Both the position numbers and the translations under genes were made by a program. 64,000 bases of DNA from a plasmid, in the sequence record AP029160.1, one strand, 5' to 3'. Below are positions 4,914 to 56,504 of the stretch, piece after piece. Position 1 is the first letter of the stretch, and each line of letters begins with the position of its first letter. The notes under the pieces were generated by a model. That model was not told where the DNA came from and searched no databases. It saw only the letters and a program-made list of their open reading frames with translations.

Positions 4914-5288
4914 TTAAGAACCGGAAGGATTAACCCATTTAATGGGATCAAGAACAGCTGAAAAAGTGGCTCGAAGAGGTTCTGAATAGAATGTTCCTAC
5001 AAAATAAATAAGTATAATTATTGCAAATGATCCCCATACCCATCCCGTAATAGTTCTACTTTTTGGAATCCATATCCACAATCCTGCACTAGCTAATAAA
5101 AAAACAAGTCCTAAAAGAAATACCACAGGGGACATGGAACGAATTGCTGAAGTTAAATTTGTTGTAGCAGTTATATATCCGCTAACTCCAGCATCTTGTG
5201 CATAAGATAAATGAAACGCTGTGAATTTAAAGATAAGTAAAATTTTAAATATAAAGTTTAAATTTTTTAATAGCATTTTATTTCTCAT
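4914..5288 (-). CDS. Small membrane protein, VirB2/TrbC pilin-like
   Basis: 124 aa with a long N-terminal signal-like segment plus two hydrophobic helices. It lies immediately upstream of the virB4-like gene. Confidence 0.4.
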   Translation of the reverse strand: MRNKMLLKNLNFIFKILLIFKFTAFHLSYAQDAGVSGYITATTNLTSAIRSMSPVVFLLGLVFLLASAGLWIWIPKSRTITGWVWGSFAIIILIYFVGTFYSEPLRATFSAVLDPIKWVNPSGS

Positions 5289-6331: not shown

Positions 6332-6830
6332 ATATTGTTACCTTTTTGGTTCTTTTCATTTTAAAAAAACTGTGAAAGATCATCTATCACAGCAATATAT
6401 TTGATTAATAATTTATCTTTATTTTATTTTTAAAATTAATGTGATTTTGGATTGAATATTAGATTCATATAATCTTAATAATATACTAATAGATTCCTCC
6501 TTCTTTTTATTTCTGCTTTCATTATATTAAGAATAAGTTTTAATTTTTTCATATCTTTTATAAATCTCTTGTCATTTAGTTGCTCAAACAATTCAAACGA
6601 GCTTAGAAACAACAATTCTTGTTTAAAATAACGATAAAAGTAAAATATTTTTTTTGAATTTAATTTCCTAATGACGGGTAATGGATTTATATAAATTTTT
6701 ATTAAATAATCTTCCATAATCATTCTTATCCTTGGTATCAAATAAAAAGTGATTATAGATTTATTTAATCTATAATCACTTTAATTTTTTTTATGCTATA
6801 TTTGATTAATTATTTACAATTCACTTTTAT

Positions 6831-23126: not shown

Positions 23127-23804
23127 AATATTCTCCTATTTATAAAATATTCTATTAAATATAATATTTTATAAATAGGAAATATTTTCAGTGTTGATTT
23201 TTATTTAGATAATCTTCTAAATTATCTTTTATCAAAATAAATCCTTTCAACCATATAATTAATTTGTTCATAATTATAATCACCATTTCTTTCTGCAATT
23301 CTCTCATAACATCATTTAGATCTCAAAATATTGTTTTGGAGGATAGCAAAATATTGTGATTTATTAAGAATAATTTAAGAATATCTTGTAAGCTTTACTT
23401 TCTGCTTTTTCTAATGTTTTTTCATGTGGACTTTAAAAATAAGAATAAGGATTATTAGAATATATTTCTAAATAATATTTATCACGTAAGTATTTATCTA
23501 ATTTTTTATCGTATTTTTCAGTACTTTGAGATATTAAAAATGTTCCATCAGGCCATGCACTAATTTTAGAAGAATATTGGTAAGAATTGTCAAAAATAAA
23601 TGCGCTCATGACAATTTATCATTATCAGTAAATATATCGACTTGAATCTCTCCTTTATTTCCAAATAAAGGCTCATTATTTTTATTAATTATTTTATTCA
23701 CAATATTTTGCCAATCCAATGGAAATCTACTTTTAAGAAAGAATCTTAAAGCTTTTGAATATTGCTGTTTTTCAGCCCAGATTCTAGCTTGATCATCACT
23801 TAGG

Positions 23805-23965
23805 TGTAACGGTGCGCTCTTATCGGAGTATTGTCGCACGCTTATCCAAAAATTTGGGCGCAAATTAATTGAAATTATCGTTTTGTTTCGGTGCTCATTA
23901 AATGAAATCGAGAGAATCCCGACGCACGCTATTTGAAATCGGGCGCGCGATAATTGAATTTATAA
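23805..23965 (+). repeat. GC-rich ~165-bp repeat, copy A
   Basis: Begins TGTAACGGTGCGC and contains the boxes GCGCACGCTTATCC / GGGCGCAAATTAATTGAA / GGGCGCGCGATAATTGAA. It is ~88% identical to copy C and nearly identical to copy B in inverse orientation. Confidence 0.8.
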
Positions 23966-24382
23966 ATTTTAGATTTCTATTATTTTTACTTCATCTTGAG
24001 TTAAGAAGTTTTCCTTATTTTTTGCAAAGAATTTGGATTCTTTTAAATCGTCAGATTCAAAGGATTTATAATAATCGTTTTTAACTTCCACTTTTTCTTG
24101 CTGAGGATAAATCACGGAATAAGTACCATTTGGTAATTTACTAACTTTTATTTATTCATTTTCTGGATTATTTTTGGCGATCACAATAAATTTTCCCATA
24201 TTTATTACCTCAATGTATATTCGATAAAAACCTTTAAAACATGTTTTTATTGTAATATTTGCTATATAAATATAAATGATATTCATTTAACTTTTAATAT
24301 TCTAAAAACGATTGTTTTCTTCGAATTGCAAAATAACTAAGCATACATTTTTAAAGATTTTTAGGATTTGATGAGGGGTTTA

Positions 24383-24548
24383 GAAATTCAATTATCGTGC
24401 GCCCGATTTCAAATAGCGTGCGTCGGGATTCTCTCAATTTCATTTAATGAGCACCGAAACAAAACGATAATTTCAATTAATTTGCGCCCAAATTTTTGGA
24501 TAAGCGTGCGACAATACTCCGATAAGAGCGCACCGTTACAACTAGTGA
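24383..24548 (-). repeat. GC-rich ~165-bp repeat, copy B (inverted relative to A, about 420 bp away)
   Basis: The reverse complement of 24383-24548 matches copy A almost base for base. The match extends ~9 bp beyond TGTAACGG (ATCACT-AG). Confidence 0.8.
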
Positions 24549-25154
24549 TAACACTTGCAAACGTGCTTCGTCTTCTAAGTAAATTATTCAACAAAAACAT
24601 CATATCTACTAAAAATCAATATAGTTATAATTTTGGACCGTTGATTGGAGATGTAAGGTGGGTTGACGTGGTTATTGCATCTTCAAATTACATACGCCAT
24701 AAAGATGAATGGGTAGAGAAGTCAAACAAAAAAGATTCGAAAATTAGAAATATTGAAAAATACAACGTAGATACACTTGAAAAATCAGGACTTATTCATC
24801 CCAGGGAAGGAAAGTATTCATCTTTAGATTTAGTGAAACATCTAAAAATCGAAAGATGGGAAACCTTATTTCAAAATATTTCAAATTGGTTAAATGATTG
24901 TTTACCTAATCATCCTGGGTTTCGTCAGAATGATATAGTGCTTCCTGAAAACTAGACTTGTTGGAGTTTTTGGCAAACAAAGTGTTTTTAAACAAAGCCA
25001 AGAAATATTTTGCTCTTTTTAAAGAACTGCTCTCATTACACTATTGTCTCAGTCTCCACATCTTTGGGAATAGTCCAATTGTCTTTGGGAACTGACATTG
25101 GGATACGACAGTCTTTGCCCTTTTAAATTTCAAAATGTTAAATTATATTTATTG

Positions 25155-28727: not shown

Positions 28728-29504
28728 TCAGTTAAGGTAACAAGAAATATTATTATCAATATTAGATAAAATTGATTTTATCTTATCTTGTACGGAAGAA
28801 ATATCATAAAGTTGCTTCTCTGTTAATTTTTTATCTTTATTTTCAATAAAAATACTGTTTACTTGTTTCTCTAATGTCAAAGCAGTCAAAGTTAGTTGTC
28901 CTATTTTCATGGAAATATTAATTTTACTAACCTTTTGTGTAGGTGCTTTAAAAGAAAGTATCTCCTTTACTTCTAATCTATCTGCTTGATTATGTAATTG
29001 TGATAAATCAAAACCACTTCTAGAAACAGAAAGCAAGGCTCTTAACTTTTCCATAGGAAGTTTTTTATTCTTAAAAAGACTTAGCTCTTTAGAAATTGCC
29101 ATGAAATCATAAGCTAAACGAATTGAAAAAGGAATTTTTGTCTCCAGATAACTTTTAAAGTTTTTTTCCTCTGTTTCAAAAAATCTTTTCCTACAAGAAT
29201 TCAATATGTCACCGGCAATAAAAGCAAAAGAAGCATCCATATTAACTTTTATTTTTTGATATGTTTCCCAGTACTCGTGAATTAAATTGCCATAATCCTC
29301 AGGTGCTTGTAATTCTTGTTCTCTAGACTCTAAAGTTCTATCCCAATTAGTCATAAGTCTGTGTAAACTTGTGACAGCAGCTTCTTCAATATTATCTGAA
29401 TTTAAGGAAATTAATTGATTTGTGGTAGGAATAAAGTTTTTTGTCTTTATTTCTTCTTTATCAACTCCCTTTTTTTGTAATATATCTTTAACCGAGGAAC
29501 TCAT
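28728..29504 (-). CDS. Hypothetical protein, candidate ParB-type partner of ParA
   Basis: 258 aa. Its start overlaps the parA stop by 4 bp (translationally coupled). Confidence 0.3.
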   Translation of the reverse strand: MSSSVKDILQKKGVDKEEIKTKNFIPTTNQLISLNSDNIEEAAVTSLHRLMTNWDRTLESREQELQAPEDYGNLIHEYWETYQKIKVNMDASFAFIAGDILNSCRKRFFETEEKNFKSYLETKIPFSIRLAYDFMAISKELSLFKNKKLPMEKLRALLSVSRSGFDLSQLHNQADRLEVKEILSFKAPTQKVSKINISMKIGQLTLTALTLEKQVNSIFIENKDKKLTEKQLYDISSVQDKIKSILSNIDNNISCYLN

Positions 29505-30496
29505 AATATAGCCTCTTCGTCTTTATTAGATTCAACTTTTTTCTTATTACTAGAAACTTCATATAAATTTAAAATATGCTTTACTACAACATCTAAATCT
29601 TCACCAGCTTGAGTCGATCTTTTAGTCCAAAGATGCTCTCCATCTTCCATTGATGAAATAAATTCTGAAGACTGCTTTATCAAATTTGGAATCATAAACG
29701 TTGAATACTGAGCATAAAACTGTTGTAAATAGGATGTACTAGCCTTTATTCTTGGATCATACATATTCACTAAAATATTTATTTCAGGTTTTTTCTTATA
29801 AGACTTTGAAATTTCATTCCATTGATTAAAAACTTGTTCTAATCCCAATTTTGAATATATATCTGGTTTAACTGGAGCAATAATTCTATCAACGGCTAGA
29901 TAAATAGCGTGTGTTAAATGAGTTAATGCCGGTGGACAATCACAAATTATTAAATCATATTCTTCTAATAACTGATTCATTGGACTAGCAATTAAACTAG
30001 AAAGATTCTCAGCTCCCAAGATTATTTCTTTATCAAGTAAACAGTTTTTTGGAGCTGAAGGGATTATACTTAAAAATTCATTAATAGGTTTTACTAGATC
30101 AAAAATATTTGTTGTTTTTTTTCTTAAGTAATCGAGCCAAACTAAATTTTGTTCATCAAATATATTCATTGAAACAGTCAAATTTAATTGATGATCGAAA
30201 TCAATTAGAAGGGTTTTATAACCATACATTGAAGCTCTAATTGCAAAATTTTTTGATAAAGAAGATTTTCCAACTCCTCCCTTAACGATTTGGAATGCTA
30301 TAGATTGCTTTTTATAATTATAACCTCGTGAAGTTTGGAGAAATTCTCGAACACTTTGTGGAGGTACAGTAGAAAATTTCTTGTTACTTTTTGCAGCTCC
30401 TGCTCTATTTTTAAACAATTGCGGTACAGCTTGTCTTGTTACATCAAGAAGATTCGCAATATCAACAACGCTTAACTCATACTGATTATTTTGCAT
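29501..30496 (-). CDS. parA: ParA/Soj-family partition ATPase with an N-terminal HTH extension
   Basis: Deviant Walker A KGGVGKSS; N-terminal ELSVVDIANLLDVTRQAVPQ helix-turn-helix. Confidence 0.8.
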   Translation of the reverse strand: MQNNQYELSVVDIANLLDVTRQAVPQLFKNRAGAAKSNKKFSTVPPQSVREFLQTSRGYNYKKQSIAFQIVKGGVGKSSLSKNFAIRASMYGYKTLLIDFDHQLNLTVSMNIFDEQNLVWLDYLRKKTTNIFDLVKPINEFLSIIPSAPKNCLLDKEIILGAENLSSLIASPMNQLLEEYDLIICDCPPALTHLTHAIYLAVDRIIAPVKPDIYSKLGLEQVFNQWNEISKSYKKKPEINILVNMYDPRIKASTSYLQQFYAQYSTFMIPNLIKQSSEFISSMEDGEHLWTKRSTQAGEDLDVVVKHILNLYEVSSNKKKVESNKDEEAIL

Positions 30497-30814
30497 AGGG
30501 CATCACTTTCTAAAAAGTGTAAAGACGGCATCCATCAGATAATATACTAAATTTAAAAAAGGCAAATAGCAAAACCAAAATTTTGATGATCTAAATTGTA
30601 AGTTACTATGTTAACTTAAAAATTTCAGTGAATTGTTTTGGTAATCTTTAAATTAATCTTCCAATGAGAATATTTAATTGTTATTTGAAGCTATTTTAGG
30701 ATTTACTAAATATGCTCTTCAAATAAGCTAAATGCTTCTATCTCACTTTCTAACTCTATTCAGGATAAGCTCTATTATCCTGCTAATTATCTTAATCACC
30801 TGTTTCTGTATCCA

Positions 30815-30982
30815 AATCGTTTTGAAATTATTTTGAATCGTTTTGAAATCACTTTGAATCGTTTTGAAATCATTTTGAATCGTTTTGAAATCATTTTGAA
30901 TCGTTTTGAAATCATTTTGAATCGTTTTGAAATCATTTTGAATCGTTTTGAAATCATTTTGAATCGTTTCAAAATAATTTTT
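30815..30982. repeat. 8 x 21-bp tandem repeats (AATCGTTTTGAAATCATTTTG), centromere-like (parS) site upstream of parA
   Basis: Seven near-perfect units plus one degenerate unit. Each unit holds two TTTTGAA half-sites 10-11 bp apart. Followed by 2 x AGATAGTTTTT. Confidence 0.8.
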
Positions 30983-31152
30983 AGATAGTTTTTAGATAGT
31001 TTTTTAAATATTCTGCGAATAATTTTCTAATTTAAAACTTGAAAAATTCATTAATATTTGCAATTCATTTATTCTAAAATCTCGCTCTTTAAAAGAAATA
31101 ATAGAGATTTTATACTAACTTTTTTTCAATTATAAAAAATAAAAGGCGTATT

Positions 31153-34254: not shown

Positions 34255-36269
34255 GCTGAGACTTGCAGTGAATAAACGCTTTGATATGCTTTCTTCAACA
34301 AGTGATTTTACTAGTTCATTGCTGAGACTTGCAGTGAATAAACGCTTTGATATGCTTTTAGGGTCAAAAGTGGAGGAGCTAGGTCTGCTGAGACTTGCAG
34401 TGAATAAACGCTTTGATATGCTAAAACCTTGCAAAGCAAATGCAAAGGACATGCTGAGACTTGCAGTGAATAAACGCTTTGATATGCTAAAATTCGTTAC
34501 ATCAGCTCCAGCAGGAAAGCTGAGACTTGCAGTGAATAAACGCTTTGATATGCTATTTCAGTTGATTTCCAATATGGTTTTGTTGCTGAGACTTGCAGTG
34601 AATAAACGCTTTGATATGCTAGATACACTACCACCAATTGTATTGAGCGAGCTGAGACTTGCAGTGAATAAACGCTTTGATATGCTTGTTAGGAATTTAA
34701 ATACTTCACCTTTAATGCTGAGACTTGCAGTGAATAAACGCTTTGATATGCTATAATTTCAGGAATTAAATCCCCTTTTATTGCTGAGACTTGCAGTGAA
34801 TAAACGCTTTGATATGCTCAGAAGGCGATTTACCGGAGGGCGTTTCTAGCTGAGACTTGCAGTGAATAAACGCTTTGATATGCTAGATTGTACCGCTTGC
34901 AGGTAGCTTAATTTGCTGAGACTTGCAGTGAATAAACGCTTTGATATGCTATCTGTCGGATTCGTGTCCGACACTTTGTTGCTGAGACTTGCAGTGAATA
35001 AACGCTTTGATATGCTTTAATAGATATAGATAAAGTTACTTTATGGGCTGAGACTTGCAGTGAATAAACGCTTTGATATGCTAATACTTTTGAAATGGAA
35101 CCTCATATTTTAGCTGAGACTTGCAGTGAATAAACGCTTTGATATGCTTGATTATTTAAATTTAGATAATATAAATTAGCTGAGACTTGCAGTGAATAAA
35201 CGCTTTGATATGCTCGCATCGGATGATATAAAATCACCATCTGCGCTGAGACTTGCAGTGAATAAACGCTTTGATATGCTAAATTTTTTGAGTTTTTGTG
35301 GCCTACTATCGCTGAGACTTGCAGTGAATAAACGCTTTGATATGCTATATAGGCACGATTTCGAAAGAGCGGGATTGCTGAGACTTGCAGTGAATAAACG
35401 CTTTGATATGCTTCGTTGGACGCAAACATGGAATAGCAATTGGCTGAGACTTGCAGTGAATAAACGCTTTGATATGCTAATAGGATGTACTTATATATTC
35501 AGACATATGCTGAGACTTGCAGTGAATAAACGCTTTGATATGCTATTATTTATAGGAAATAGGACAACGTGTCCGCTGAGACTTGCAGTGAATAAACGCT
35601 TTGATATGCTTTTTTTCTTTTTTAATAAAGACAATTATGTGCTGAGACTTGCAGTGAATAAACGCTTTGATATGCTAAAGCTTCTTTAAAACATTTCTTA
35701 AAAGTGGCTGAGACTTGCAGTGAATAAACGCTTTGATATGCTTTCTAATTTTGTTGGCAAAAATGATTTGATGCTGAGACTTGCAGTGAATAAACGCTTT
35801 GATATGCTGCCACGTTATGATCGCCTGCACCAAGAGAGCTGAGACTTGCAGTAAATAAACGCTTTGATATGCTTAAAATTTTTAATTCAGTTCATAGTAT
35901 TCTGCTGAGACTTGCAGTGAATAAACGCTTTGATATGCTCAAACGTACCGTTAGAATTTATTGCTATTTGCTGAGACTTGCAGTGAATAAACGCTTTGAT
36001 ATGCTAAAACCAGCTTCTTTCAGACAAGAAAGAACGCTGAGACTTGCAGTGAATAAACGCTTTGATATGCTAGTGAGAGGCTAGGATCATTTTCCGCGAC
36101 AGCTGAGACTTGCAGTGAATAAACGCTTTGATATGCTTTCTTTACTGGATTCTACAAATTCGAATTCGCTGAGACTTGCAGTGAATAAACGCTTTGATAT
36201 GCTTAGAAATCATAAAATATTAAACATGATAATGCTGAGACTTGCAGTGAATAAACGCTTTGATATGCT
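34255..36269 (+). CRISPR. CRISPR array: 31 repeats of 36 bp (GCTGAGACTTGCAGTGAATAAACGCTTTGATATGCT) and 30 spacers (29 x 30 bp, 1 x 29 bp)
   Basis: Regular 66-bp period from 34255 to 36234. Repeat 25 (35838-35873) carries a G>A variant at 35853. Orientation was chosen from the tracrRNA anti-repeat. Confidence 0.95.
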
Positions 36270-36320
36270 AGATCCTAATATAATTTCATAATTATATTAG
36301 GGTTTTTTGTGATTTTAGGC

Positions 36321-36706: not shown

Positions 36707-37597
36707 CTATTTAAGAAGATTCGGTAAAATAATTTTAGGTTCTTGGGAAAGAAATGCATTAGAGAGACTTTGTGCTGATAGGGTAATTATATCCTGAAGC
36801 GGTCGTTCTTCCTTGTTGAAATTAAATTTTTTATACATAATTTCAATTAAACGTTTTTTGATTGATGTGTCTAAATTGAATGGACTCTGTAATTCTTCTG
36901 AAATTAAAAAAACTTCATTGTCAATAATTGGACGAAAAGGTTCCATAACATCATCCGCTAAGCAAAATGCATTGTACTTGCTTTTATGAAATATTCCTAT
37001 GGAAGGATTTAAGCCTGTAGCGCATAATGATCTTGCAACGACGGCCCTTAAAATAGCATACCCATAATTTAAAAATTTATTTTCGTCTTCAGCAGAAATA
37101 TCCCTTTTGAATTCTTTCATAGGATGTATATTTTTCCAATATATTCTGGCAGCCTGTGCTTCTAAATTTCCTTCGTCTCCACTTTTAACTTCTTTGCACA
37201 TTTTTAAAAGTCCAAAATGAGCACCTTTTTTTCTTAATAAAAGAGAGCCTTGAACTTCAATTTTTCGTGCAATAACCTTTTTCCAAAGTTGTTTTTTAAA
37301 TGGAATTGAAGAGAGAATCTGTTTTGCAAAACGCTGTGTTTGCGAAGAATGAGCATCAAGTGGTAAAAGCATTCCTATGGGCATGTGCCTTTCATCGCTA
37401 CAAACAAATATACTTCCATTTTCAGATAATTTTGAAAGTACTGCATGCGTGTATGTTACTGCTGGTGAAGAAACAATGAGAGCAGCAATATCAGAAAAAG
37501 GTAAGGTAACTCTATTTTCTCCTTCAATGACAAGGAGGTCATTGAAGGAGGAAAGACGCACTTTCTGAGTAGAAATATCAATAATTTTTTTTGTCAT
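36707..37597 (-). CDS. cas1: Cas1
   Basis: 296 aa. Its stop overlaps the cas9 start by 4 bp. Located between cas9 and cas2. Confidence 0.85.
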   Translation of the reverse strand: MTKKIIDISTQKVRLSSFNDLLVIEGENRVTLPFSDIAALIVSSPAVTYTHAVLSKLSENGSIFVCSDERHMPIGMLLPLDAHSSQTQRFAKQILSSIPFKKQLWKKVIARKIEVQGSLLLRKKGAHFGLLKMCKEVKSGDEGNLEAQAARIYWKNIHPMKEFKRDISAEDENKFLNYGYAILRAVVARSLCATGLNPSIGIFHKSKYNAFCLADDVMEPFRPIIDNEVFLISEELQSPFNLDTSIKKRLIEIMYKKFNFNKEERPLQDIITLSAQSLSNAFLSQEPKIILPNLLK

Positions 37598-40500
37598 TCA
37601 TGACTTTCAAAAAGATCACCCAATGGGGAAACAATAATTTTTTTACATTTTAGAGCATATAATGAATTTGGTGAGACATTAGGAAAATCAGATGTCTTAA
37701 TTCTGTCACATTGAGGCCGAGCATCATGGGAAGGTGAATGGTAAATGCGGGAATCACTTGTAATAGATTTTACACTCCTTAATTTTACCTCTCCATTCTT
37801 ATCTGTTATTTCTATTATGTCTCCCTTCATTAGAGAGAATTTAAAATACCCCCCTTTTTCTTTTAGAGCATCTTTATCAATAACAGGACGATTATTCTTT
37901 TTTCTAGTCATCGCTTCTAGGCGTGAAACAACTATAGCTTCCCAGGTAACTTTTTTTCCTTTTGTAATTTCATAGTAAGCTATATGATGATTCTCATCTG
38001 CTTGAACATTTCTTTCTTGCAATCCCTTTCCAATTTGTAAAGGTGATGCTGTTCGTGCTTTTACACGCACCGACTTAATATATATTTTTTCTCCCTTTTG
38101 TTTTGCAAAAGGTCTTTTAAACTGTTCGTTATGTTTTACAATAAGGAAGGGAAGTGTTTTTTCATCGTCCAATTTGAAAGCTTTTTTTGGAATCTTAGTT
38201 CCAATTTCAGCTAATTTTCTCATAACACAATCTTTAATATTGGGATCAATTATATTTCCTAATTCTCTGTCAGTTAGTGAATCCAAAGGTTTTCGAATTG
38301 GGATATAATTTTCACCTAATTTGTCTTTGTTACTTTTACCATAGAATGTTTCCTTATGTAATGAACCATTAATTTTTCTGTCTACTCTAAAGGATATTTG
38401 AATTTTTGATACATGCTCTTGAGCTTGTTCTAATAAATTCTCCCAAATTTTATCTAATTTTCCAAATTTGCTTTTAGATTCCTTTTCCGCATTTTTTGCT
38501 GCTCGATTGAGTAAGTTTATAGATTTTTCAGATGTTAAAGCAATTACAAGTGCATCTACTGCATGATGTCTGTGGTCATTTCTTGATTTTATATTTTCTT
38601 TTGAAAGTATTGAATTTAATTTCCACATATTTCGTAAATAGGCAGTTATTTGACCAGTGCTTGCTCTTACTCGGAGATAATTGTTCCCATCAACTTCTCC
38701 TCCATAAAGAAGTCCTAGATAATTTTTTGCAAGTTTTGTTGCATAACGGGTATCATTTAACATTTGGCTAGCAAAATCTTGTTCACTTGTTGCATCTTTT
38801 TGCTTAAAAAGTTGTATTTTTTTATATTTCCCATTTCCTTTGAATTTTTCAACCCTTTTTAATATTTCTGAGTATTTTTCTGGACTGCCAATCCCATAAG
38901 CTTCATACGGGGTTTGGTTTTTTTTAACATTTCTATTTTCAAAATAATGGCAAAGAGTTTTATTTAAAAAAGAATCATCAAGACTTCTACTCAAAGGTAC
39001 AATATGTTCCACATCAAATTGAGGATTTTTCCCAAAGAGATCTTCCATGCTTATTATCTTTCCTGTATAGGGGCATTGATAATTGCATTCAACATATAAT
39101 AGATATTTTTCAATATCAGACTTACTTATTTTAAGGCTTGGTGAGTATTCTAATATTTTATTTTCTGCTTCTACTCTTTCGCTAGCACGACTTTTATTAG
39201 CCTTTAAAATATTTTCTCTAAACTCTTTTCCTTTTTTGAGTTCACGCGCAAGTTCTATTCGTATCTGTTTAGGTTTTCCGTACTTCTTGATTATGCTGTT
39301 TACAATTTTTCGAAGCTCAGACAAAGTTCTTGAAACTATCGGATTGCGTAAAGAAGGATCGACTTTACCATAAGATGGTAATAAATTAAAAATGTTTTTA
39401 TCGTTTTCATCTTTATAACCTGCATTTATTTTTGCTTCATAAAGATCCTTTCCTTCTCTTAAAAATGGAAGGATTTTTTCAACTGCGGTACTACTATATG
39501 CGAGGTAGCCTTCTTCTAAATTTATTTGAGAAAGTTTAGATGCTGTTTCTGAGTCTAATTTCCATTTTTCTTTAAAATGCTTTTCTAGTGCAATTTGTGA
39601 ATCAAAACTAATTAAAGCATTTACAATTTTTTCTTGATCAATTTTACTATGAGAGAAGAATCCACTGTAAACACTGAAAATTTTGCTAGAAGTGGTATCT
39701 CCTTTCACTTCATTTTCATCATATTTGAATTTTTCATCTTTTTCCAAGTTTAATATTTTTTTTAAGTAAGAAACTTTTATTTTATCTTTCTTTAAAAATT
39801 CATTGAAAATAATCTCTCTCTCATAAGGGGTCAATGATCTTTCTGTAGTAGTTGAAAAGCTATTTATAATCCGAAAATTATTTATCGTTTGTTTTGCTCT
39901 AAATTCTTGTGCATTTAAAAATGCAATTTTCATTCTTCTTTTGTCTTTTTCAAGTTTACAAAATCCAATAAATTTTTTAACAGATTTAAGAGGCCTTTGG
40001 TGAAAAATAGATTTATATATATTTTTTTTAACTTCGTTGTTTTCAAAAAAATGATTATTGCCTAATGAAATTTGTGAGCTTATAATTTTTTCATATTCTT
40101 CTTCATACATTTTTCGAGAAGTATATTTTTTTCTAATTCTAATTTTATCAGGTTCAAAAGTTGAAAAAAGTTCTCCTAAAGTTCTAAATTCACTTTCTTC
40201 CATGTTCTCATATAACTTTTTAATCCCTCCTAAAACATTGCCAGTTTCAGCACTTTTACCAGATTTCCTATTACTTAAAAATCCTCTTCTTTGGCCTAAA
40301 TGAAACAATGCCCTACCTATTTCAAAAGGCTCTAATTTTTCATCTAATGCAATTTTACGCAAAAAATAAGGAAACACATTTGGAAGAGTTTTTTTATAAA
40401 TTTTATATAAATGTGGTTTGTGAGGGAGTACGAGACTCCATTTTTTTAATAAATCTATATCTAAATCTCTAATTATTTCTTGTCGAACTTCAAGCATTCT

Positions 40501-40857
40501 GCGTCTTATTTCTTTTTTTTTGGCTTGATTTGATATATTTTCTTCAAATGGGGAATTTATTTTTCCTAGTTGTGATTTAGAGAAGTTTGGGAGCAGAGAT
40601 GATTCTTGTAAAATTTTAAATAATTTGTTCATGCGCATCATACGACGATCTCGTGCTCTACGTGTTAAACGTGCTTCTCTTCTTTGAGCATTTTTAGAAC
40701 TTTCTGTGCCGAATTGATCTCTATTTACACCCTCATCAAAAATACGTACCCCCATTTTTTCAATATTTTGTTTTTCTTCATTGATTAGGCTCCAACCAAT
40801 ACTAGATGTTCCAAGATCTAAGCCCAAGATTAATTCATTAGTAGTTAAAGAACTCAT
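37594..40857 (-). CDS. cas9: Cas9 (type II-C size class, 1087 aa)
   Basis: RuvC-I ILGLDLGTSSIGWSL; HNH YQCPYTGKIISMEDLFGKNPQFDVEHIVPLSRSLDDSFLNKTL; no csn2 or cas4 in the locus. Confidence 0.9.
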   Translation of the reverse strand: MSSLTTNELILGLDLGTSSIGWSLINEEKQNIEKMGVRIFDEGVNRDQFGTESSKNAQRREARLTRRARDRRMMRMNKLFKILQESSLLPNFSKSQLGKINSPFEENISNQAKKKEIRRRMLEVRQEIIRDLDIDLLKKWSLVLPHKPHLYKIYKKTLPNVFPYFLRKIALDEKLEPFEIGRALFHLGQRRGFLSNRKSGKSAETGNVLGGIKKLYENMEESEFRTLGELFSTFEPDKIRIRKKYTSRKMYEEEYEKIISSQISLGNNHFFENNEVKKNIYKSIFHQRPLKSVKKFIGFCKLEKDKRRMKIAFLNAQEFRAKQTINNFRIINSFSTTTERSLTPYEREIIFNEFLKKDKIKVSYLKKILNLEKDEKFKYDENEVKGDTTSSKIFSVYSGFFSHSKIDQEKIVNALISFDSQIALEKHFKEKWKLDSETASKLSQINLEEGYLAYSSTAVEKILPFLREGKDLYEAKINAGYKDENDKNIFNLLPSYGKVDPSLRNPIVSRTLSELRKIVNSIIKKYGKPKQIRIELARELKKGKEFRENILKANKSRASERVEAENKILEYSPSLKISKSDIEKYLLYVECNYQCPYTGKIISMEDLFGKNPQFDVEHIVPLSRSLDDSFLNKTLCHYFENRNVKKNQTPYEAYGIGSPEKYSEILKRVEKFKGNGKYKKIQLFKQKDATSEQDFASQMLNDTRYATKLAKNYLGLLYGGEVDGNNYLRVRASTGQITAYLRNMWKLNSILSKENIKSRNDHRHHAVDALVIALTSEKSINLLNRAAKNAEKESKSKFGKLDKIWENLLEQAQEHVSKIQISFRVDRKINGSLHKETFYGKSNKDKLGENYIPIRKPLDSLTDRELGNIIDPNIKDCVMRKLAEIGTKIPKKAFKLDDEKTLPFLIVKHNEQFKRPFAKQKGEKIYIKSVRVKARTASPLQIGKGLQERNVQADENHHIAYYEITKGKKVTWEAIVVSRLEAMTRKKNNRPVIDKDALKEKGGYFKFSLMKGDIIEITDKNGEVKLRSVKSITSDSRIYHSPSHDARPQCDRIKTSDFPNVSPNSLYALKCKKIIVSPLGDLFESHE

Positions 40858-41024: not shown

Positions 41025-41350
41025 GTTCTGTTGCAAAGATTTCAAAGTAACAAAGAACCTTGGAATTGATTTTCAAAACGACTATTCCAGACGCAATTAT
41101 CCAGCGAGGGAGCTAAATTGCTCCCAAATAGGCAAATGACTTTTAAATTTGAATTGCCCTTTTCTGAGCATATGATGGAGTTCAATACCTGTTAAAGTAG
41201 CTTTCGCCAATTTCAATGAGAAGAAACCAAACATAAGCTTCACTTTCTTTTTTATAAATCGATGGTCTTGTTCTACAAGATTATTTAGAGATTTATTTTG
41301 TCTTATTAAGATCTTATCTTCAGATTTAAGATCTTTGTTGATAACATTTA
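41025..41350 (-). mobile_element. Truncated, diverged IS6-family remnant (right terminal repeat plus 3' end of the transposase gene)
   Basis: GTTCTGTTGCAAAG terminal repeat at 41025. The reverse complement of 41085-41345 matches the 3' part of the IS6 copies at 54.6-61.1 kb (LAGIELHHMLRKGQFKFKSHLPIWEQF...), estimated 85-90% identity. Confidence 0.6.
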
Positions 41351-41428
41351 AAACTGCAAATACAAAAAATAAGTGAATTTAAATATTTTTTTATCATTAA
41401 TTTTTCATTTCGATTAAGATTCATAAGC

Positions 41429-42522: not shown

Positions 42523-42987
42523 TTAATTCATAATTTTTAAAAAAAAATCGACTCTAATACAATTATCAGAAATAATTTCATAAAAATGAAAACCACTTTT
42601 TATTTTAACATTATTAATTTTAATATCTTTTTCAAGAGCAACTATATTTTGATTTTTAAAAAAATTTAATTTTTGAATTTTATCACTTTTTTCAGGATTG
42701 AATATAGTATCCTGAACAGCATCAAAATTCATTATAAAGAGCGATTTTTGATCTTTTCCATGCTCTTTATTTTTTGAATATTCTTTAAAAAATGTATTTA
42801 ATCTTTTATCTAGTTTTTGTTTTATATAATATTTTTTTATTGTTGGACAAGCGAGAAATATAAGAGTACCAACGGTTCCTATTGCAGCAACCCATGTTCC
42901 TATTGCGGTTATAAAATACCATGCGGTATCCCAAGTCCATTTTGAATCAATAATATGTTTAAATTGACAAAAAATATAATCAAACAT
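42523..42987 (-). CDS. Small membrane protein
   Basis: Likely start MFDYIF at 42985-42987 behind an AGAGGAGA ribosome-binding site. The longer ORF-track version (to 43047) overlaps the integrase 3' end. Confidence 0.35.
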   Translation of the reverse strand: MFDYIFCQFKHIIDSKWTWDTAWYFITAIGTWVAAIGTVGTLIFLACPTIKKYYIKQKLDKRLNTFFKEYSKNKEHGKDQKSLFIMNFDAVQDTIFNPEKSDKIQKLNFFKNQNIVALEKDIKINNVKIKSGFHFYEIISDNCIRVDFFLKIMN

Positions 42988-44014
42988 TTTTATCTCCTCT
43001 TTCTTTTTGATATTTAACTTTTCTTGCTGCACTTTCTTTTTCTTCATCGGTTTTCCGGATGTACATCATGGTGGTCATCATACTTTTATGACCAAGGAGA
43101 TCTTGAATTTCAGACAAGGGAACCCCATTCCTGTGAAGATGACTTGCAACAGTGGCACGGCAGGAGTGCGGGCTAATTTCTTTTGTAATTCCATGCTCAC
43201 GCGCAATACTTGTCACCATGCGCGCAAGGTAATCCCGATTGATTGGTTTTTTTGAGAACGGTGTAAGAGCAAAGAGAAAATCCTCTTTTTTAGCAAGAGG
43301 TCTTAAAGTAACAATGTAGCTTTTAAGGAGTGCGGCTAATTCATCACTTATTAAGGGAGCATGAATTTCTCCGCCTTTGATTTTCAAATGCAGCCTAGGG
43401 TATTTTCCTGTCAGGTCCAGATCTTTAATTTTGAGGGAACACAATTCTGTTGCTCTCATCCCTACGTGTGAGAGCGTGCTAAAAACGATGAAGCGAAGCC
43501 ATGCCCGATAATCCTCTTTTACTTTAAGAGGGTTTGTTGCTTTCTTATAGGACTCTTCGAGCGACTCTAAAATGCGAGCAATCTCTGCTTCTGATAATGC
43601 CTCTGTTTTCCCTTTAGATTTCTGTACTTTAGGCAAGCGTATGGCAGCCCCAGCATTTCTATCCACCCATCCTTCTTGAAACGAAAATTTAAGGAAGGAC
43701 AAAAGCGGAGAAAGCTTTGCGCACACCGAAGACGGCGGGTATGTGGCCAAAAGATAGCGTTTGTACGCATCCACATGATCTCGTTGAATTTCAGCGAGGC
43801 TTGCAAACGCAACCCCTTTTTCTAAACAAAATGCAAAAAAATCCCTTAAATGACGGGCATAATTTTGTCGTGTGTTATCACTTACATAACTGCCTAAAAA
43901 TCGAGCTTGTTTTAAGGCGATTTCAGGGGGGGATTTTTCAAAGTTGGTACTAGGAGACCCCCCAATTGAAGTTGAAGGTTGCTCTATGGATTGGCAATAT
44001 TGAGTTTCAGGCAT
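42980..44014 (-). CDS. Tyrosine recombinase / integrase
   Basis: Catalytic region HSCRATVASHLHRNGVPLSEIQDLLGHKSMMTTMMYIRKT (R..H..R..Y). Confidence 0.85.
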   Translation of the reverse strand: MPETQYCQSIEQPSTSIGGSPSTNFEKSPPEIALKQARFLGSYVSDNTRQNYARHLRDFFAFCLEKGVAFASLAEIQRDHVDAYKRYLLATYPPSSVCAKLSPLLSFLKFSFQEGWVDRNAGAAIRLPKVQKSKGKTEALSEAEIARILESLEESYKKATNPLKVKEDYRAWLRFIVFSTLSHVGMRATELCSLKIKDLDLTGKYPRLHLKIKGGEIHAPLISDELAALLKSYIVTLRPLAKKEDFLFALTPFSKKPINRDYLARMVTSIAREHGITKEISPHSCRATVASHLHRNGVPLSEIQDLLGHKSMMTTMMYIRKTDEEKESAARKVKYQKERGDKNV

Positions 44015-44956: not shown

Positions 44957-45014
44957 AAAATCAGGATAAAATTTGATGTATTTAAATACAAATGAAATTT
45001 ATAAGTAGAATCAT

Positions 45015-45650: not shown

Positions 45651-45659
45651 GGGGCAAAG

Positions 45660-46975: not shown

Positions 46976-46986
46976 ATAGATAGATG

Positions 46987-47150
46987 TAACGGCGCGCATT
47001 CCTAGGAGCATGGGCGCGCACTTATCCGAAAATTTGGGCGCAAATTAATTGAAATTATCGTTTTGCTTCGGCGCACATTAAATGAAAACGAGAGAATCTC
47101 GGCGCACGCTATTTGAAATCGGGCGCAAGATAATTGAATCTATAATAATT
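46987..47150 (+). repeat. GC-rich ~165-bp repeat, copy C
   Basis: TGTAACGGCGCGC...GGGCGCAAGATAATTGAATC; ~88% identical to copy A. Confidence 0.8.
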
Positions 47151-48755: not shown

Positions 48756-48789
48756 TTATATATCCTATATTTGAATTTAATATTGATTT

Positions 48790-49749
48790 CTAACTTATTC
48801 CTAATTTAAGAATTTCTTGATTGAATTCTTGAGCCTTAGAACCGACTAATTGACCTTTTAAAAACAATCTTAGCTCATTATTTTTTGAATTTAACAAATC
48901 GCATAAATATCTATTTGTGTATCCATTTCTAGCTAATTTTGCATCAAGGCCATTTATTTCAGGAACAAGAACAGACTGAACAATTTCTTTCGTAACAGGT
49001 TTAACACCTATCATGTATGCTTTTTGTAAAGAACTGCTCAAATACTTTATCACTTGTAATGGAGTTAAAAGACTTTCACCAGGTAATTCTATTGCATCTT
49101 GATTTAATATATCTTTTGGTTTGATATTTTCTGATACGGCTTGTTTTATTATCCATTCGCAATATTTCGCCTTGTTTTCAAGAACACTAAACATATGACT
49201 TCTTGCACCAATTTCTTCATTTTTGGGATGATTTAGTTCGTTGCTAAGCTTTGGTTGGCCTACAAGAATAAATGTAATTTTCCCTTCAGTATCTTTATCT
49301 AACTCTCGAATCTTTTTAAGTCCAATGAAGGTTTGTGTATTTAATTCATGTGCATCATCAATGAGTAAAACAAGATTTTTTTTGTGTTTGTTTAACAGCT
49401 CAATAAGCTTTCTTTCTTTTTTTTCAGCTTTCATGTAACTACCTATATTTTTTTCTTTTACAAGATCTGAAAAAAATGCGCTAAAAATAAGAGGAATTGA
49501 AACTGCTTGTTTTTCTGTGGAAAGAGAGCGACAAACAATTATATTCTTTTCTTCTTGTAATTTTTTTAAGGTTTTATCAAGCAAAGTCGTTTTACCAGAA
49601 CATGATAAGCCTGTAACAACAACAATTCCTCCTAATCTTATACTAAAATGTAAGTCATCCATTAGTTTTTTAGATTTTTCATTTTCAAAATAAGGGACAT
49701 CTGAAAATCTTTTTAATATTCCAAAGTGATTCATCACATCAACTTCCAT
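48790..49749 (-). CDS. TniB/ExeA-like AAA+ ATPase (transposition helper)
   Basis: N-terminus MNHFGILKRFSDVPYF; Walker A VVTGLSCSGKTTLLDK; Walker B LVLLIDDAHEL. Confidence 0.55.
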   Translation of the reverse strand: MEVDVMNHFGILKRFSDVPYFENEKSKKLMDDLHFSIRLGGIVVVTGLSCSGKTTLLDKTLKKLQEEKNIIVCRSLSTEKQAVSIPLIFSAFFSDLVKEKNIGSYMKAEKKERKLIELLNKHKKNLVLLIDDAHELNTQTFIGLKKIRELDKDTEGKITFILVGQPKLSNELNHPKNEEIGARSHMFSVLENKAKYCEWIIKQAVSENIKPKDILNQDAIELPGESLLTPLQVIKYLSSSLQKAYMIGVKPVTKEIVQSVLVPEINGLDAKLARNGYTNRYLCDLLNSKNNELRLFLKGQLVGSKAQEFNQEILKLGIS

Positions 49750-49766
49750 ATTGACCTCATTTATAT

Positions 49767-50546
49767 TTAATCATTCACACATGTTCTGATTGTAAAAAAC
49801 ATTTTAATCTTTTCCATAAGGATCTTTTTACATAAAGATTCTGAAATAAATTGCTCTATTTGGTTTATTTGATTATCCAATAAAATTGAGAGAGGCTTTC
49901 CTAAATACATAGATATTGCTATTTTTGCATCTATTGGGTCTTTAAAAAATAATTCACTTTCATCATATTCTTTAAATGGAATAAATTTATCTACATTTTC
50001 TTCAATAAAACCTGTCTTCTTTATTACATCTATTATTTCTTTATCTTCACAATTCATTGTCATTATTGCTCTAGGAATTTTAATACTTTTTACTAAAGAA
50101 CTTATTTCTTCATCTTGTTTTTCATTTTTTGTTTTTTTAAATGAGCGATAAGTTCCTAATGGAATAGGATCTTCTGACTTATAAAAAGGACCAAATTTTT
50201 CACCATTAAATTCAGCATAAACTTCATAATCAAAAACTCCTACTAAAATTGTTACTATTTCTCCAGCCATTTCTGGTAATAATTGATATTGAATTCCATC
50301 TAATTTAATTCTTGCATCTGAGCTGACTTTTCTCTCAACTGGTTCACGCGCCATTTGACAAAATTTCTCCCAAGAACACATTTTGCTGTAACCTTTTTCA
50401 GGTAAGTTTAATTTGGGGTTATTTGCAAGAATCCCCGAGATTGTATACCAAAGCTGACTTATTATTGAAAATAGAGGATATCTTTGTTTTTGACGAGTAT
50501 AAAATCCAAGTACCTGCGTGAGAATCATAACGATGATGATTCTCAC
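49767..50546 (-). pseudogene. C-terminal fragment of a Mu/TniA-type DDE transposase (5' part displaced by the Tn3-family element)
   Basis: KVSSDARIKLDGIQYQLLPEMAGEIVTI... resembles the post-catalytic beta-barrel region of TniA/MuA. Upstream sequence is Tn3 tnpA. Confidence 0.4.
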
Positions 50547-53500
50547 AGTTTATTTTTTACATGCTTTGATATTTTGTCCAAGTTTAATTTTCCTTCTTTT
50601 TTAGTGAACTCGAAGCGACCAAATAAATTGATGTGCTGCCAAGCTACAGGAGACATGGATTTTATTATATCTTCATTCCATTTTCCGTGTGCCATTAAAT
50701 TTGAAAATATAGATTCATTATAATAAATAATACAAAGCGTAATAAAACGAGCACAAGCATCCCAGACTTGCTGTTCTTCTTCTGTTTTAAATTTTAATTT
50801 ACCAAAATTTGCATACCCAACCGCTCGCTTTAATTGATGATAGCTTTCAACTCTGTTTAAAGCTTTTTGTACACCTTGTCTGAGTTCTGACGAATCTAAA
50901 TAGTCAAGCAAATAGATGCTTTTTAGAATACGATTATATTCCCATAAAGCATTTTTTGTTTTACTTTTATGAGTATGCGAGCTTATCTTTGCTGTTATTA
51001 TGCTCTGTGTAGTTTTTTTTATGCCAAGAGAATCATAATTTTTTGAATATTTTCCCATTCTTCAATTATAATTCTTGTATTAAATCTCTTTTTTGGTCTT
51101 AAATTTAAATGACTATAATCGCTTATATTTTTAAAAGACCCTATGGAATCAGTAAAAACATCATAAAAATCTTTATATCGGGGAGCGAATTGGTACCCAA
51201 ATGTATACAAAATTGCAAAATTTACATCATTAGTTCCATGTGTATCTGTTGAAAAAACTTCAGGATGAACGTCGCTTTTATTGCTAGATATTATATCATA
51301 AACATGATGGCTTTCATGATCATTTGCGCTAATTATTTTTGAATTAGTAGGAAGGATATTACCAACCATTGAATATGAAACAATACCTTTTTTTCGACCA
51401 AAATATTTAGGTGAATGTCTTGCATTAATAGTTGATACTTTTACCTCAAACTTTTGACCATCTCCAGCAAAATGAGCTAGCGAATTAATATGATACTTAG
51501 AAAAAATTGGTGATTTATAAATTTCGTTTGTGATTTTATCACAAGCATCTTTCACTGTTTCTAAGCGAATAAAGTTTTTTAAAGATGAGTATAAATTATT
51601 GTAAGAAAGATCTGAAACATCAGAAATTTTTTTAATACCCATATTAGTAGCTATAGCAATAATACAAGCAGTTATTGATTTTATATCTGCTTCTTCCTTT
51701 GTAAATCGACATAAAATATGCTCGAAACAGTCCATAATATTTGCGTTTTTTATGGCAAAATATATAACATCAATAAGATCTATTTGCTCCAATGACTCAA
51801 ATAAGTATTGGTTTACATCCTCAGATGATGAAGGAGTTTTTACATTCCATCTTGATTTTTTTAATGTTTTATTTTGTTCAAAATATATATTTTCACCTTT
51901 TTCAATTTTATTGTTTACCGTTATTAATTTTTTTTCGTATATTTCTTTTAGTTCATTTAGATGCTTTTCTGGTTTTTTATTGAAATTCTTTAGACCTAAT
52001 TCATGTATAAAATTATCTTTATTTTCCCATTCTTTATTTGTAACTAATTCACTTGCTAGGCTTTTATATTTTACACTATCCGAACAGTAAATAGAACCTG
52101 ATTCTAAATTTTCACAAATAAGCATATAGATCAAATATTCACATCGATCATAGCTGACTTTATTGTCATTAATTATATATTTTAAAAATTTTTTCGGTAT
52201 AAAATTTTCCTTAAATTCAAATATATTATTTTTATCTAAGTTCTTTTTTGATATGTGATTTTTTAATATATTCAACGCTTCTATCAATTTTGAGTTTTTA
52301 GATAAAAATTCAAAATCTATATTCATAATAATTGGTCTTAAATTTTTTTTAATTTTTTGATTTATTATTTCTATATATTCCCATTCAAATTCACTTTTAT
52401 CAAAACTTGCTTTATTTTCAATATAATCAGCAACAACTGCTAAAAGATTTTCCCTCAATAACGTAAAGGCTCTACCTTTTGTTTTTAAAAAAGTTTCGCT
52501 TTCAGGTATTTTTTTATCTAAAAATATTTTTAATATTTTACCTGCTTTAGGTACGTATTCATTCCCTTCTATCTTGTATTCTAGTATCTTTTCATCTGCA
52601 TAAAGCTTATATTCCGCTTCAAATAAATTTAAATTATACTTTAAAGCATTAATCATGTTATCATTATATTTATGAAATCTATGAAATAAAAAACAAATTA
52701 TATATAATCTTACAATTTTTATATCTCGAATATTTAATCTATATACAGAGTAAAATTCAACTAAAGAAGCATAATATTTTATACTTTCATTTGAAATCAT
52801 AAGTCTTGGAATTAAATTTTTTATTTTTATATAAAATTTTCTTATTTTACTACCTCTTATTATTTCTTCTTTTATTTCACCATATTTGAAATCTTTTGGG
52901 CTATGTTTTAGTGATGTAATTTCATATGTTTTATCTTGTTTTAGTTGTATTAATTTATTTAACTCATTTGAAAATCCAATATCTATATTTTCTTCAATAA
53001 TATTTATCAATCTTGATTCTTCTGAAAGCAATATTTTGCTTATAAAATCTTGCATGTATGAATATCTTGGAATAATAATTTTATTTTCATCCAAGAAATT
53101 AAAAAGTTCTCGAAAAATGTATTTTTGTTTTGCACTTATTTTAACTAGATTTAGTGCCTTTTCCTCTAATATTTCTAAATCTTTTTTATCAAAGTATTTA
53201 TACTTGAAAATATCTAATATTGTTTTTTTATTTTCAGTTGATGTTATTTTACTTACATCTTGTATTTTTTTTATACTTAAAATACTATTCTTAAAATGTT
53301 TCTCAACAATAAATTTAATATCTTCTTCAACTTCATTTAATTTAAAAGAAAAAAATCTATATTTAAATTTGAAATATCCCAATTGTAAAATAAAATTAAT
53401 TTTTGAATTTAAAATTCTGAGTTTATTTAAAGCAATATTTTCCTTGTGTGATAAATCAAAATAGATTTCTCTTTCTTCATCTGAAAATAGTGGTCTTTCA

Positions 53501-53595
53501 TAAATTAATTTAATTTCATCAGGTTTAAGAATAGTGAGTCGATTTGAATGGTGCTCACTTTCTTCTTTGTATTCATCATCAATTTCCAAAAGCAA
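50543..53595 (-). pseudogene. tnpA: Tn3-family transposase TnpA, split by a frameshift into 858-aa and 171-aa ORFs
   Basis: N-terminal DUF4158-like region FILQLGYFKFKYRFF. The C-terminal ORF 50543-51058 (TKNALWEYNRILKSIYLLDYLDSSELRQGVQKALNRVESYHQLKRAV) is the TnpA tail in another frame, overlapping by ~40 bp. Confidence 0.7.
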
Positions 53596-54274: not shown

Positions 54275-54366
54275 AGATTTAGGTTTTTCAATTTATTTAT
54301 TAAAGATACTTTAGTTTTTTAATTAAATTAAAGAAACATTAAAATTAACCTAAAGAGGAATAGCTT

Positions 54367-56428: not shown

Positions 56429-56504
56429 ATTACAAATAAATTTTTGCAAATAATTAAGAGTTACGAATCAGAGGTGTGTTACTTTTCAATTAGGTTCCAT
56501 TTAG

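Follow-up and report, generated by a model that had tools for sequence, protein, structure and literature searches.

A G+C-rich repeat of plasmid record AP029160.1 as the long terminal inverted repeat of a resolvase-transposase-ATPase transposon family

Three copies of a boxed repeat

The DNA analysed here, referred to throughout as the window, is a stretch of 64,000 nucleotides from a plasmid (sequence record AP029160.1) that appears to come from a member of the Silvanigrellaceae, its closest matches being Silvanigrella and Pigmentibacter ruber sequences. Its gene content includes parA with tandem iterons, a gene for a 665-aa Rep-like protein, a type II CRISPR-Cas system, darTG and a tyrosine integrase gene, with further mobile DNA in the form of a Tn3-family element, four IS6 copies and an IS21 remnant. 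The subject of this report is a repeat present in the window as three copies of 161 bp each, designated A, B and C (Table 1), of which A and B are inverted and together bound a short segment, the A-B unit (23805-24540). Comparison with other loci identifies it as the terminal inverted repeat (TIR), of unusual length, belonging to a transposon that encodes a serine resolvase (tnpR), a DDE transposase (tnpA) and an AAA+ ATPase (tnpB).

A repeat search of the window returned inverted arms of 166 nt at 23801-23966 and 24379-24544 (98% complementary, with 412 nt between them) and a direct copy at 46981-47145 (87%). Copy boundaries were refined by aligning A, B and C with ten more copies, drawn from other genomes and from metagenomes; by these boundaries A and B are 98% identical, inverted and 414 bp apart, and C is approximately 87% identical to either. 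In this alignment every copy starts with TGTAACGG and ends with GATAATTGAATyTmTAA. A profile hidden Markov model (HMM) of nine copies matched A, B and C in the window (E 1e-55 to 1e-57) and gave no weaker matches there. A preliminary description of this DNA, made from the letters alone, had reported a three-copy GC-rich repeat with A and B near-identical and inverted, GC-rich boxes 21-33 bp apart and a TGT start, all of which was upheld by these analyses, the boundaries aside.

G+C content is 40-44% in the copies, whereas it is 29% across the window and 24% between A and B. The box motif GGCGCAnnnTwATTGAAAT occurred 12 times in the window at up to three mismatches, always within the three copies, relative to a mean of 2.4 and a maximum of 7 in shuffled sequence. 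When two divergent outer boxes are included, each copy harbours six boxes in one shared orientation, spaced approximately 21 to 33 bp apart. The peptide RPNFWISVRQYSDKSAPL, common to the open reading frames (ORFs) 23606-23863 and 24368-24955, is the translated repeat. Both ORFs had been regarded as spurious, which stands for the shared peptide; ORF 23606-23863, however, includes approximately 64 codons of a real gene.

Intact elements in other genomes

Exact scans with a 20-mer common to all copies, conducted across 185,579 genomes and 241 million metagenome records, recovered seven further repeat loci in addition to chance hits. These represented six distinct copies, as L008 carries the L010 sequence (fetched loci are given L numbers). 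There was no match to the unit by blastn against 72,556 plasmids and 50,697 phages, nor in an exact 19-mer scan of viral contigs. Copy C was 93-94% identical to the copies in L002, L006, L008 and L010, and the A/B sequence variant (approximately 87% identical to the others) was seen nowhere else in the scanned collections. The Silvanigrellaceae-type repeat was bordered by at least ten different outer flanks, namely those of A, B and C in the window and those in L002, L004, L006, L008, L009, L026 and L027, which is evidence of mobility.

It was found that the repeat lies in inverted orientation at both ends of three-gene elements in L026, L011, L013, L017, L020 and L016. The intact element is arranged as right TIR, res site, tnpR, tnpA (548 aa), tnpB, cargo and left TIR. 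For instance, L026, from the P. ruber chromosome, has an element that lies within a giant gene of fn3 repeats. Its TGT termini are at 7318 and 12955, and between them are tnpR, tnpA, tnpB and genes for a solute-binding protein and a 135-aa protein. In L011 the repeat ends lie at 50 and 6116 and the transposase is 66% identical, whilst the complete 3.8-kb element of L013 consists of tnpR, tnpA and tnpB only. The suggestion in the preliminary description that the repeats were transposon ends with a non-autonomous derivative was borne out by this inverted arrangement (L011, L026) and by the continuity of copy C with an element interior, described below.

Relatives of the transposase numbered 2,800 in the databases at E <=0.001, and these carry the pipeline labels 'IS481 family transposase' or 'DDE-type integrase'. 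The resolvase-transposase-ATPase operon was present in all eight family variants examined. Hosts include a metagenomic F-type plasmid region (L012, with a TIR of 115 bp), a plasmid of Candidatus Megaera in the Rickettsiales (L017), plasmids of Pseudomonas coronafaciens (L018), P. aeruginosa (L019, CP109756) and Enterobacter (L020), and the Salmonella Typhimurium virulence plasmid pRM10607 (L016, CP013721 31114-40748); elements in Legionella also belong to the family. On pRM10607 the transposase gene is rlgA, and the resolvase-rlgA-ATPase operon and a carbonic anhydrase gene lie between 222-bp inverted repeats (2157-2378 and 6563-6784, 92%). These have the TGTAGCGG terminus and the box layout, so that the region beside spvR can be recognised as a family transposon lacking annotation. 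In L019, a class 1 integron with intI1, blaVIM-2 and aac(6')-IIc is found immediately upstream of the family resolvase gene, a location that would be expected for a res-hunting Tn402-type integron.

Across the family the termini are TGTAACGG or TGTAGCGG, with the terminal sequence TGTAGCGGCTCGCAATCG, and the TIRs span 115-222 bp with four to seven boxes. Counted from the TGT terminus, boxes lie at +7, +29, +53, +86, +117 and +138 in the Silvanigrellaceae, including the window copies, and at +7, +29, +52, +85, +126 and +147 in the enterobacterial elements (Salmonella L016 and Enterobacter L020), whilst L012 and L017 keep the first four positions and have shifted inner boxes. The box core is GGCGCA in the Silvanigrellaceae lineage and GGCTCA in others, and thus tracks the transposase lineage. 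Geometry that is kept while the box sequence co-varies with the cognate protein is as expected of transposase-binding sites, and by analogy the six boxes of each end are most likely a transposase-binding array.

Target site and target duplication

Exact 6-bp duplications abut the TGT...ACA termini in three of the eight complete relatives, with CTTATA in L011, CCTAAC in L017 and GCTAAT in L020, each of which has TA at its centre. When the flanks were read inward, TA occupied positions -4/-3 at all 24 ends and G occupied position -2 at 15 of them. The exact duplications in L011, L017 and L020 ruled out two other readings, namely that the conserved 'TAGn' outside TGT belongs to the element, since the duplicated hexamers directly abut TGT/ACA, and that the duplication is one of 2 bp (TA) or 5 bp.

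Target DNA between the flanks was missing in both cases with an inferable pre-insertion sequence, the A-B unit and L026, the latter having apparently lost approximately 17 codons of an fn3 unit at the junction. Absent duplications combined with lost adjacent DNA could reflect an unusual outcome of strand transfer; equally, they could be the product of ordinary intramolecular replicative events.

The A-B unit as a gene-less derivative

The A-B unit consists of 736 bp with two full-length TIRs, and tnpR, tnpA and tnpB are absent from it. The preliminary description of its interior as nothing other than decayed coding sequence suits the passenger ORF next to A, whose 75 codons contain a stop, have no relatives by tblastn in any fetched locus and are probably a pseudogene. 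It does not suit the approximately 180 bp beside B, which are the conserved region between the right end and the resolvase gene. The interior beside B was 83% identical to positions 4851-5011 of L004 (approximately 160 bp) and also aligned with L011, L006 and L012. A res-like imperfect palindrome lies in this region (Table 1), and the candidate resolution sequence of TnpR, a putative res-like site, is ATTCGAAGAAAACGATCGTTTTTAGAAT. The same region holds a promoter-like TTTATA-16-TACAAT arrangement, and a promoter scan of the A-B unit was not above chance.

The A end truncates a host gene, the remnant of which was 97% identical to L021, a P. ruber plasmid on which the gene is intact and encodes the 107-aa protein P0121. 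The final six bases of the cut gene (23799-23804) read CTTAGG on the plus strand and CCTAAG on the gene strand, and are a native target-type hexamer, in that the empty site in L021 reads AATAAA-CCTAAG-TGATGATC and the window junction at A reads CCGTTACA-CCTAAG-TGATGATC. As the ACTAGT flanking B is not a duplicate of CTTAGG, the A-B unit is without a target duplication. In addition, host DNA is missing beside B, comprising the 5' part of the cut gene (121 bp) and all sequence farther upstream. The unlike flank hexamers and the missing host DNA indicate that the A-B unit is not a simple insertion with duplication.

From these alignments, the A-B unit is considered an internal-deletion or replacement derivative in which both TIRs and the res/promoter region were kept. 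Lacking all three genes, it would be mobile only with these proteins supplied in trans. Its flanks may have arisen by adjacent deletion through intramolecular replicative transposition, or by recombination between two copies.

The copy C element

Positions 643-3155 of L004 correspond to 47912-50414 of the window at 98% identity, and copy C is therefore the left end of a truncated copy of the element. Beyond 3155, L004 continues into a full-length 548-aa tnpA and the serine resolvase gene tnpR, followed by a repeat copy at 5012-5177 with its TGT outward. The second of the two solute-binding protein genes carried by the copy C element is also cargo in L004, L026 and L027. The tnpB product of the window had 98% identity to the P. 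ruber chromosomal protein P0122, with a Walker A motif of GLSCSGKT as opposed to GLSGSGKT in the intact P. ruber/L004 protein, and a 3-residue deletion; both changes fit the decay of a truncated element. The tnpA remnant was 94.8% identical to P0001 over residues 318-548 (tblastn), and as the N-terminal 317 residues are missing, the copy C element is dead. This tnpA was cut by the insertion of a Tn3-family element, the transposase gene of which is itself frameshifted and lies outside the repeat family (Table 1).

Predicted proteins and proposed mechanism of transposition

The best NCBIfam model for TnpA was transpos_IS481 (1.6e-23), at 83.6 bits and hence far short of its cut-off of 224, and Pfam identified helix-turn-helix domains, an rve core and a weak Mu-transpos_C_2 barrel. 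Searches of solved structures by sequence, with both single sequences and profiles, returned only generic integrase-core matches for TnpA and P-loop matches for TnpB, so that fold comparison was needed. The AlphaFold model of TnpA (pLDDT 74) had ShCAST TnsB, IS21 IstA and Tn7 TnsB as its top folds (E 1e-14 to 1e-9), with Foldseek E values of 4e-14 to 7e-9 against the TnsB structures 8rdu, 8ea3, 7svw, 7pik and 9bw1. TnpB was assigned to AAA_22, and its model (pLDDT 75) adopts an initiator-clade AAA+ fold that matched MuB (8xvb, 1.8e-7) and TnsC (8v32, 1.3e-6), with ORC/Cdc6 scoring higher. The resemblance of the modelled TnpA and TnpB to TnsB and TnsC is one of fold only. The family resolvase scored best against the invertase-type model Mpi, below the cut-off. 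Neither TniQ nor TnsA was found in the complete element of L013, nor was any further conserved gene found in the eight family variants examined.

In the mechanism that we propose, the N-terminal helix-turn-helix domains of several TnpA protomers would bind the six boxes of an end, and box-bound TnpA would pair the two ends, as in the transpososomes of TnsB, MuA and IstA. The AAA+ protein TnpB would govern target capture and activation, and strand transfer at an nCTAGn-like hexamer would generate the 6-bp duplication. With no TnsA-type nuclease, and with a conserved resolvase and res-like palindrome, transposition is probably replicative, in which case it would proceed via cointegrates that TnpR resolves.

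Alternative explanations

Several other functions were considered for the repeat. Plasmid iterons or a centromere, in which the repeats would be bound by the 665-aa Rep-like protein or by one resembling ParB and the A-B unit would be origin-like around its AT-rich core, might be suspected from direct 19-22-bp boxes placed at about one or one-and-a-half multiples of 21 bp, from the position of B 1.2 kb downstream of the 665-aa gene and of the L002 copy approximately 320 bp downstream of a homologue in the same orientation, and from the ParA and ParB_C-like genes in the window. Such a role is extremely improbable, as the repeat flanks tnpR-tnpA-tnpB within the chromosomal fn3-repeat gene of L026 and occurs in at least ten unrelated contexts, and the box spacing relative to the TGT terminus is kept on unrelated replicons. 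The L002 copy is moreover the cargo-side end of an element with a YhcG nuclease gene, as in L011, and the window has separate 21-bp tandem iterons beside parA. The L004, L011 and L026 loci, in which tnp operons are bordered by the repeat, led to this idea being dropped. A structured non-coding RNA family, also raised in the preliminary description, can be given almost no credence at all: the whole window returned no Rfam match at gathering thresholds, and the RNAalifold structure of nine copies had an energy of -19 kcal/mol over 166 nt, the covariation term being 0.04, with only two of 35 pairs changed on both sides. In favour of an RNA are one possible compensatory change in the outer stem (columns 9/34) and a G+C-rich island with sharp boundaries in an A+T-rich genome. 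Against it, internal units of the repeat are direct rather than complementary, and the copies face either way with respect to adjacent genes.

The A-B unit invites two explanations of its own. An invertible switch, in which the 414-bp segment, promoter included, would be turned round by recombination between the 161-bp arms, would account for the length and near-identity of the inverted repeats and for the promoter-like region and the palindrome resembling a recombinase site that they enclose, and the preference of the family resolvase for the Mpi model, albeit below the cut-off, is in keeping with this. Yet the unit neither contains nor adjoins a recombinase gene, its arms are transposon ends that match those of intact elements in sequence, the res-like site is single with no inverted duplicate, and the opposite-orientation sequence was not found; the crossover sites of known invertases are short. 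We therefore consider the switch of the preliminary description highly unlikely, whilst passive RecA-dependent flipping between the arms, as distinct from a regulated switch, may occur. The same description had likened the unit to a miniature inverted-repeat transposable element (MITE), and its anatomy of two TIRs and no transposase within 736 bp is indeed that of a MITE. Membership of an actively amplifying multi-copy family, as opposed to a one-off deletion derivative, is nonetheless very unlikely, and the comparison was overstated, given that the exact 20-mer scans of the genome and metagenome collections revealed no second paired unit or other inverted pair a few hundred bases apart, that target duplication is lacking and that the A/B variant has been seen only here.

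As a whole, the findings are very probably best explained by the repeat constituting the approximately 160-bp TIRs of a DDE transposon, with the A-B unit a gene-less derivative and copy C part of a broken element. A number of observations count against this explanation or parts of it. Five of the eight complete elements (L012, L013, L016, L026 and the A-B unit) are without target duplication, and hence simple insertion is not the sole outcome, though every flank of these is still a target-type hexamer (nnTAGn read inward). The window holds no intact tnpA of the repeat's transposon family, only a single mini-element was found, and nothing indicates past movement of the A-B unit as a unit. The role assigned to the boxes is based on conservation and analogy, and the replicative mechanism on gene content only.

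Comparison with known transposons

The IS481 family generates a 6-bp duplication at NCTAGN, followed by an inverted repeat starting with TGT, and CCTAAC, the hexamer duplicated in L017, is among its reported duplications (PMC6794481, PMC3053399). The termini described here likewise begin 5'-TGT, and the inverted repeat of TnRErm46, which is driven by ISRe46, reads TGTTGCGGGTC... as compared with TGTAACGG or TGTAGCGG. Since an IS481-like target is palindromic, the flanks resemble an extension of the inverted repeat. The present family differs from IS481 in its 548-aa TnpA with an extra beta-barrel and C-terminal helical region, in having three conserved genes (an AAA+ ATPase and a serine resolvase added) rather than a single transposase gene, and in multi-box ends of 115-222 bp rather than a short inverted repeat. 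By sequence, TGT termini and nCTAGn-like target, IS481 is nevertheless the nearest known family.

Tn552 of Staphylococcus encodes the transposase p480, the ATP-binding protein p271 and the resolvase BinL, and has 116-bp terminal inverted repeats with repeated transposase sites and a duplication of 6-7 bp. It thus shares with the present elements an rve-type DDE transposase, an ATP-binding partner and a serine resolvase, but differs in gene order, tnpR being first here. Tn552 p480, taken from pCM05, was 27% identical to TnpA over 142 catalytic-core residues (pairwise E 2e-7), which falls short of family-level homology. Staphylococcus was not among the ten most frequent genera of 888 plasmid matches, although 1,083 staphylococcal plasmids carry blaZ.

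TGT/ACA ends are common to Tn7-like and IS481 elements, and Tn7-like elements also have several spaced transposase sites, those without TnsA using a resolvase (PMC11406308). The likeness to these elements, including CRISPR-associated transposons, extends by fold to a TnsB-type transposase and an AAA+ partner, although sequence and profile searches of solved structures yielded no sequence-level match of TnpA to TnsB. The present elements differ in lacking TniQ/TnsD and TnsA, in the 6-bp duplications of L011, L017 and L020, each of which fails a 5-bp reading, and in having two near-identical ends where those of Tn7-like elements are asymmetric. The Tn7/Mu-like assignment of the preliminary description accordingly survives for the TnsB/IstA fold and AAA+ partner, but not for TnsA, TniQ or a 5-bp duplication.

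Tn5053/Tn402 elements, with TniA, TniB, TniQ and TniR, combine a DDE transposase, the AAA+ protein TniB, a serine resolvase, TGT termini and arrays of transposase sites. Their TniQ, 25-bp inverted repeats and 5-bp duplication distinguish them from the transposon studied here, and they target res sites (PMC11406308). The element thus works like the transposase-plus-AAA+ systems of Mu, Tn7, Tn5053, Tn552 and IS21, yet is a member of none. As for non-autonomous elements, the A-B unit is similar to MITEs, to the Tn3-derived TIMEs and to mobile insertion cassettes in being short, with both TIRs of an autonomous partner, a small passenger ORF and no transposition genes. It departs from MITEs in being single copy, with no target duplication and no sign of amplification, and its ends of 161 bp each make it longer than most of them.

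No paper naming the family or printing its termini was found in the limited literature covered, ISfinder and TnCentral lying outside the search, and a full-text search for terminal 12-mers matched no transposon paper. One paper on mcr lists 'exeA-int' beside mcr-9, where it is not treated as a transposon; this remnant is probably a family member. Two candidate links were rejected. ISPa40, tried as a family name, is an unrelated Tn3-family element, and no claim is made of a link between the boxes and the crs/rsd multimer-resolution locus of Salmonella plasmids, as rsdB is a different resolvase, in a ccdAB operon (PMC5065971).

Other features of the window

Coordinates of the repeat copies, the associated genes and other features of the window are given in Table 1. 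Nested mobile elements span 50543-61031 and 41093-41357, and include, besides the Tn3-family genes, three IS6-family copies and a partial inverted one. Directly outside the terminus of copy C lie a ParB_C-like gene and then a DarT/DarG (macro domain) toxin-antitoxin pair. A glycine/tyrosine-rich, secreted-looking protein of 135 aa is encoded as left-end cargo in L004 (1-292), L008 (271-716) and L026 (12243-12650), and its gene is also present in the window, away from the repeat copies.

Transposon ends of a second family, likewise TGT-ended but unrelated to the repeat, are also present in the window; in reverse complement they read TGTCAGTTCCCAAAGACAATTGGACTATTCCCAAAG, they contain repeated CCCAAAGAC boxes, and one of them lies only approximately 550 bp from copy B. 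Further ends of this second family were found in L006 (9320-9450), where the end adjoins a TniA/TnsB-like transposase gene, and in L023 (1370-1424 and 1613-1665), where it is inserted in a tnpR gene of the resolvase-transposase-ATPase family, a position that resembles those chosen by Tn5053-type elements, which hunt for res sites.

Table 1. Features of the window associated with the repeat copies or located around them
Feature	Position	Strand	Description
Cut host gene, 3' part	23606..23804	-	about 64 codons (LSDDQARIW... to stop), truncated by the A end
Copy A	23805..23965	+	TIR of the mini-element, at the position of the cargo/left-end junction in intact elements; TGT at 23805
Box starts in copy A	23811, 23833, 23857, 23890, 23921, 23942
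Passenger ORF	23972..24199	-	75 codons, one in-frame TAA, own GAGG ribosome-binding site; occupies the tnpR start position of intact elements
Right-end region	24200..24379	-	collinear with the right TIR-to-tnpR stretch of intact elements
Res-like imperfect palindrome, 28 bp	24299-24326		ATTCTAAAAACGATTGTTTTCTTCGAAT; second half-site GGTTTTTATCGAAT
Copy B	24380..24540	-	second TIR, corresponding to the right end beside the resolvase gene; last base of the ...CCGTTACA terminus at 24540
Flank hexamer beside B	24541..24546		ACTAGT, perfect nCTAGn target-type site
Ends of second TGT-ended family	25051-25098, 61905-61952
ParA-type ATPase gene	29501-30496
21-bp tandem repeats	30773-31023		10-11-bp sub-period, AATCGTTTTGAAATCATTTTG, just upstream of the ParA-type ATPase gene; probably a centromere or iteron array
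CRISPR array	within 34255-36280		about 30 units, 66-bp period
Cas1	36707-37597	-	type II CRISPR-Cas
Cas9	37594-40857	-	type II CRISPR-Cas
Tyrosine integrase gene	42980-44014
ParB_C-like gene and DarT/DarG pair	44339-46694
Copy C	46985..47145	+	left TIR of a truncated full-length element; outer flank hexamer GATAGA (46979-46984)
Solute-binding protein gene, cargo	47254-47991	+	family 3, Pfam SBP_bac_3
Solute-binding protein gene, cargo	47988-48755	-	family 3, Pfam SBP_bac_3
tnpB	48790..49749	-	AAA+ ATPase, 319 aa; Pfam AAA_22, 2.5e-13
tnpA remnant	49770..50459	-	residues 318-548 of the 548-aa DDE transposase, within a 259-aa ORF
Tn3-family transposase gene	50543..53595	-	frameshifted; Pfam DDE_Tnp_Tn3, DUF4158
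Tn3-family resolvase gene	53660-54274
IS6-family copies	54367-55404, 56444-57250, 60338-61027
IS21 remnant	57479-58907
Gene for 135-aa protein	62764-63171
TnpB-like C-terminal fragment	63428-63889

Implications

What was found in the window is ordinary mobile DNA of a widespread family for which no name was found. For the annotation of the plasmid, the three G+C-rich islands are transposon ends, the ORFs sharing a peptide are translation artefacts, one host gene has been truncated by insertion, and the copy C element is a dead, nested transposon. It is possible, though somewhat doubtful, that a large family remains formally undescribed in which IS481-type ends and target are combined with a TnsB/IstA-fold transposase, an AAA+ partner, a serine resolvase and up to seven boxes per end.

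The same family lies unannotated in the Salmonella virulence plasmid and in large resistance plasmids of Klebsiella, Enterobacter and Pseudomonas, where pipelines have labelled its genes 'IS481 family transposase', 'ExeA/AAA family ATPase' and 'recombinase'. Knowledge of the ends (TGTARCGG and a box array) and of the 6-bp duplication allows the boundaries and cargo of these elements to be drawn in such plasmids. The family is also a possible model for how an IS481-like enzyme becomes dependent on an AAA+ partner, and the lineage-specific switch between G and T in all boxes offers a handle on end recognition.

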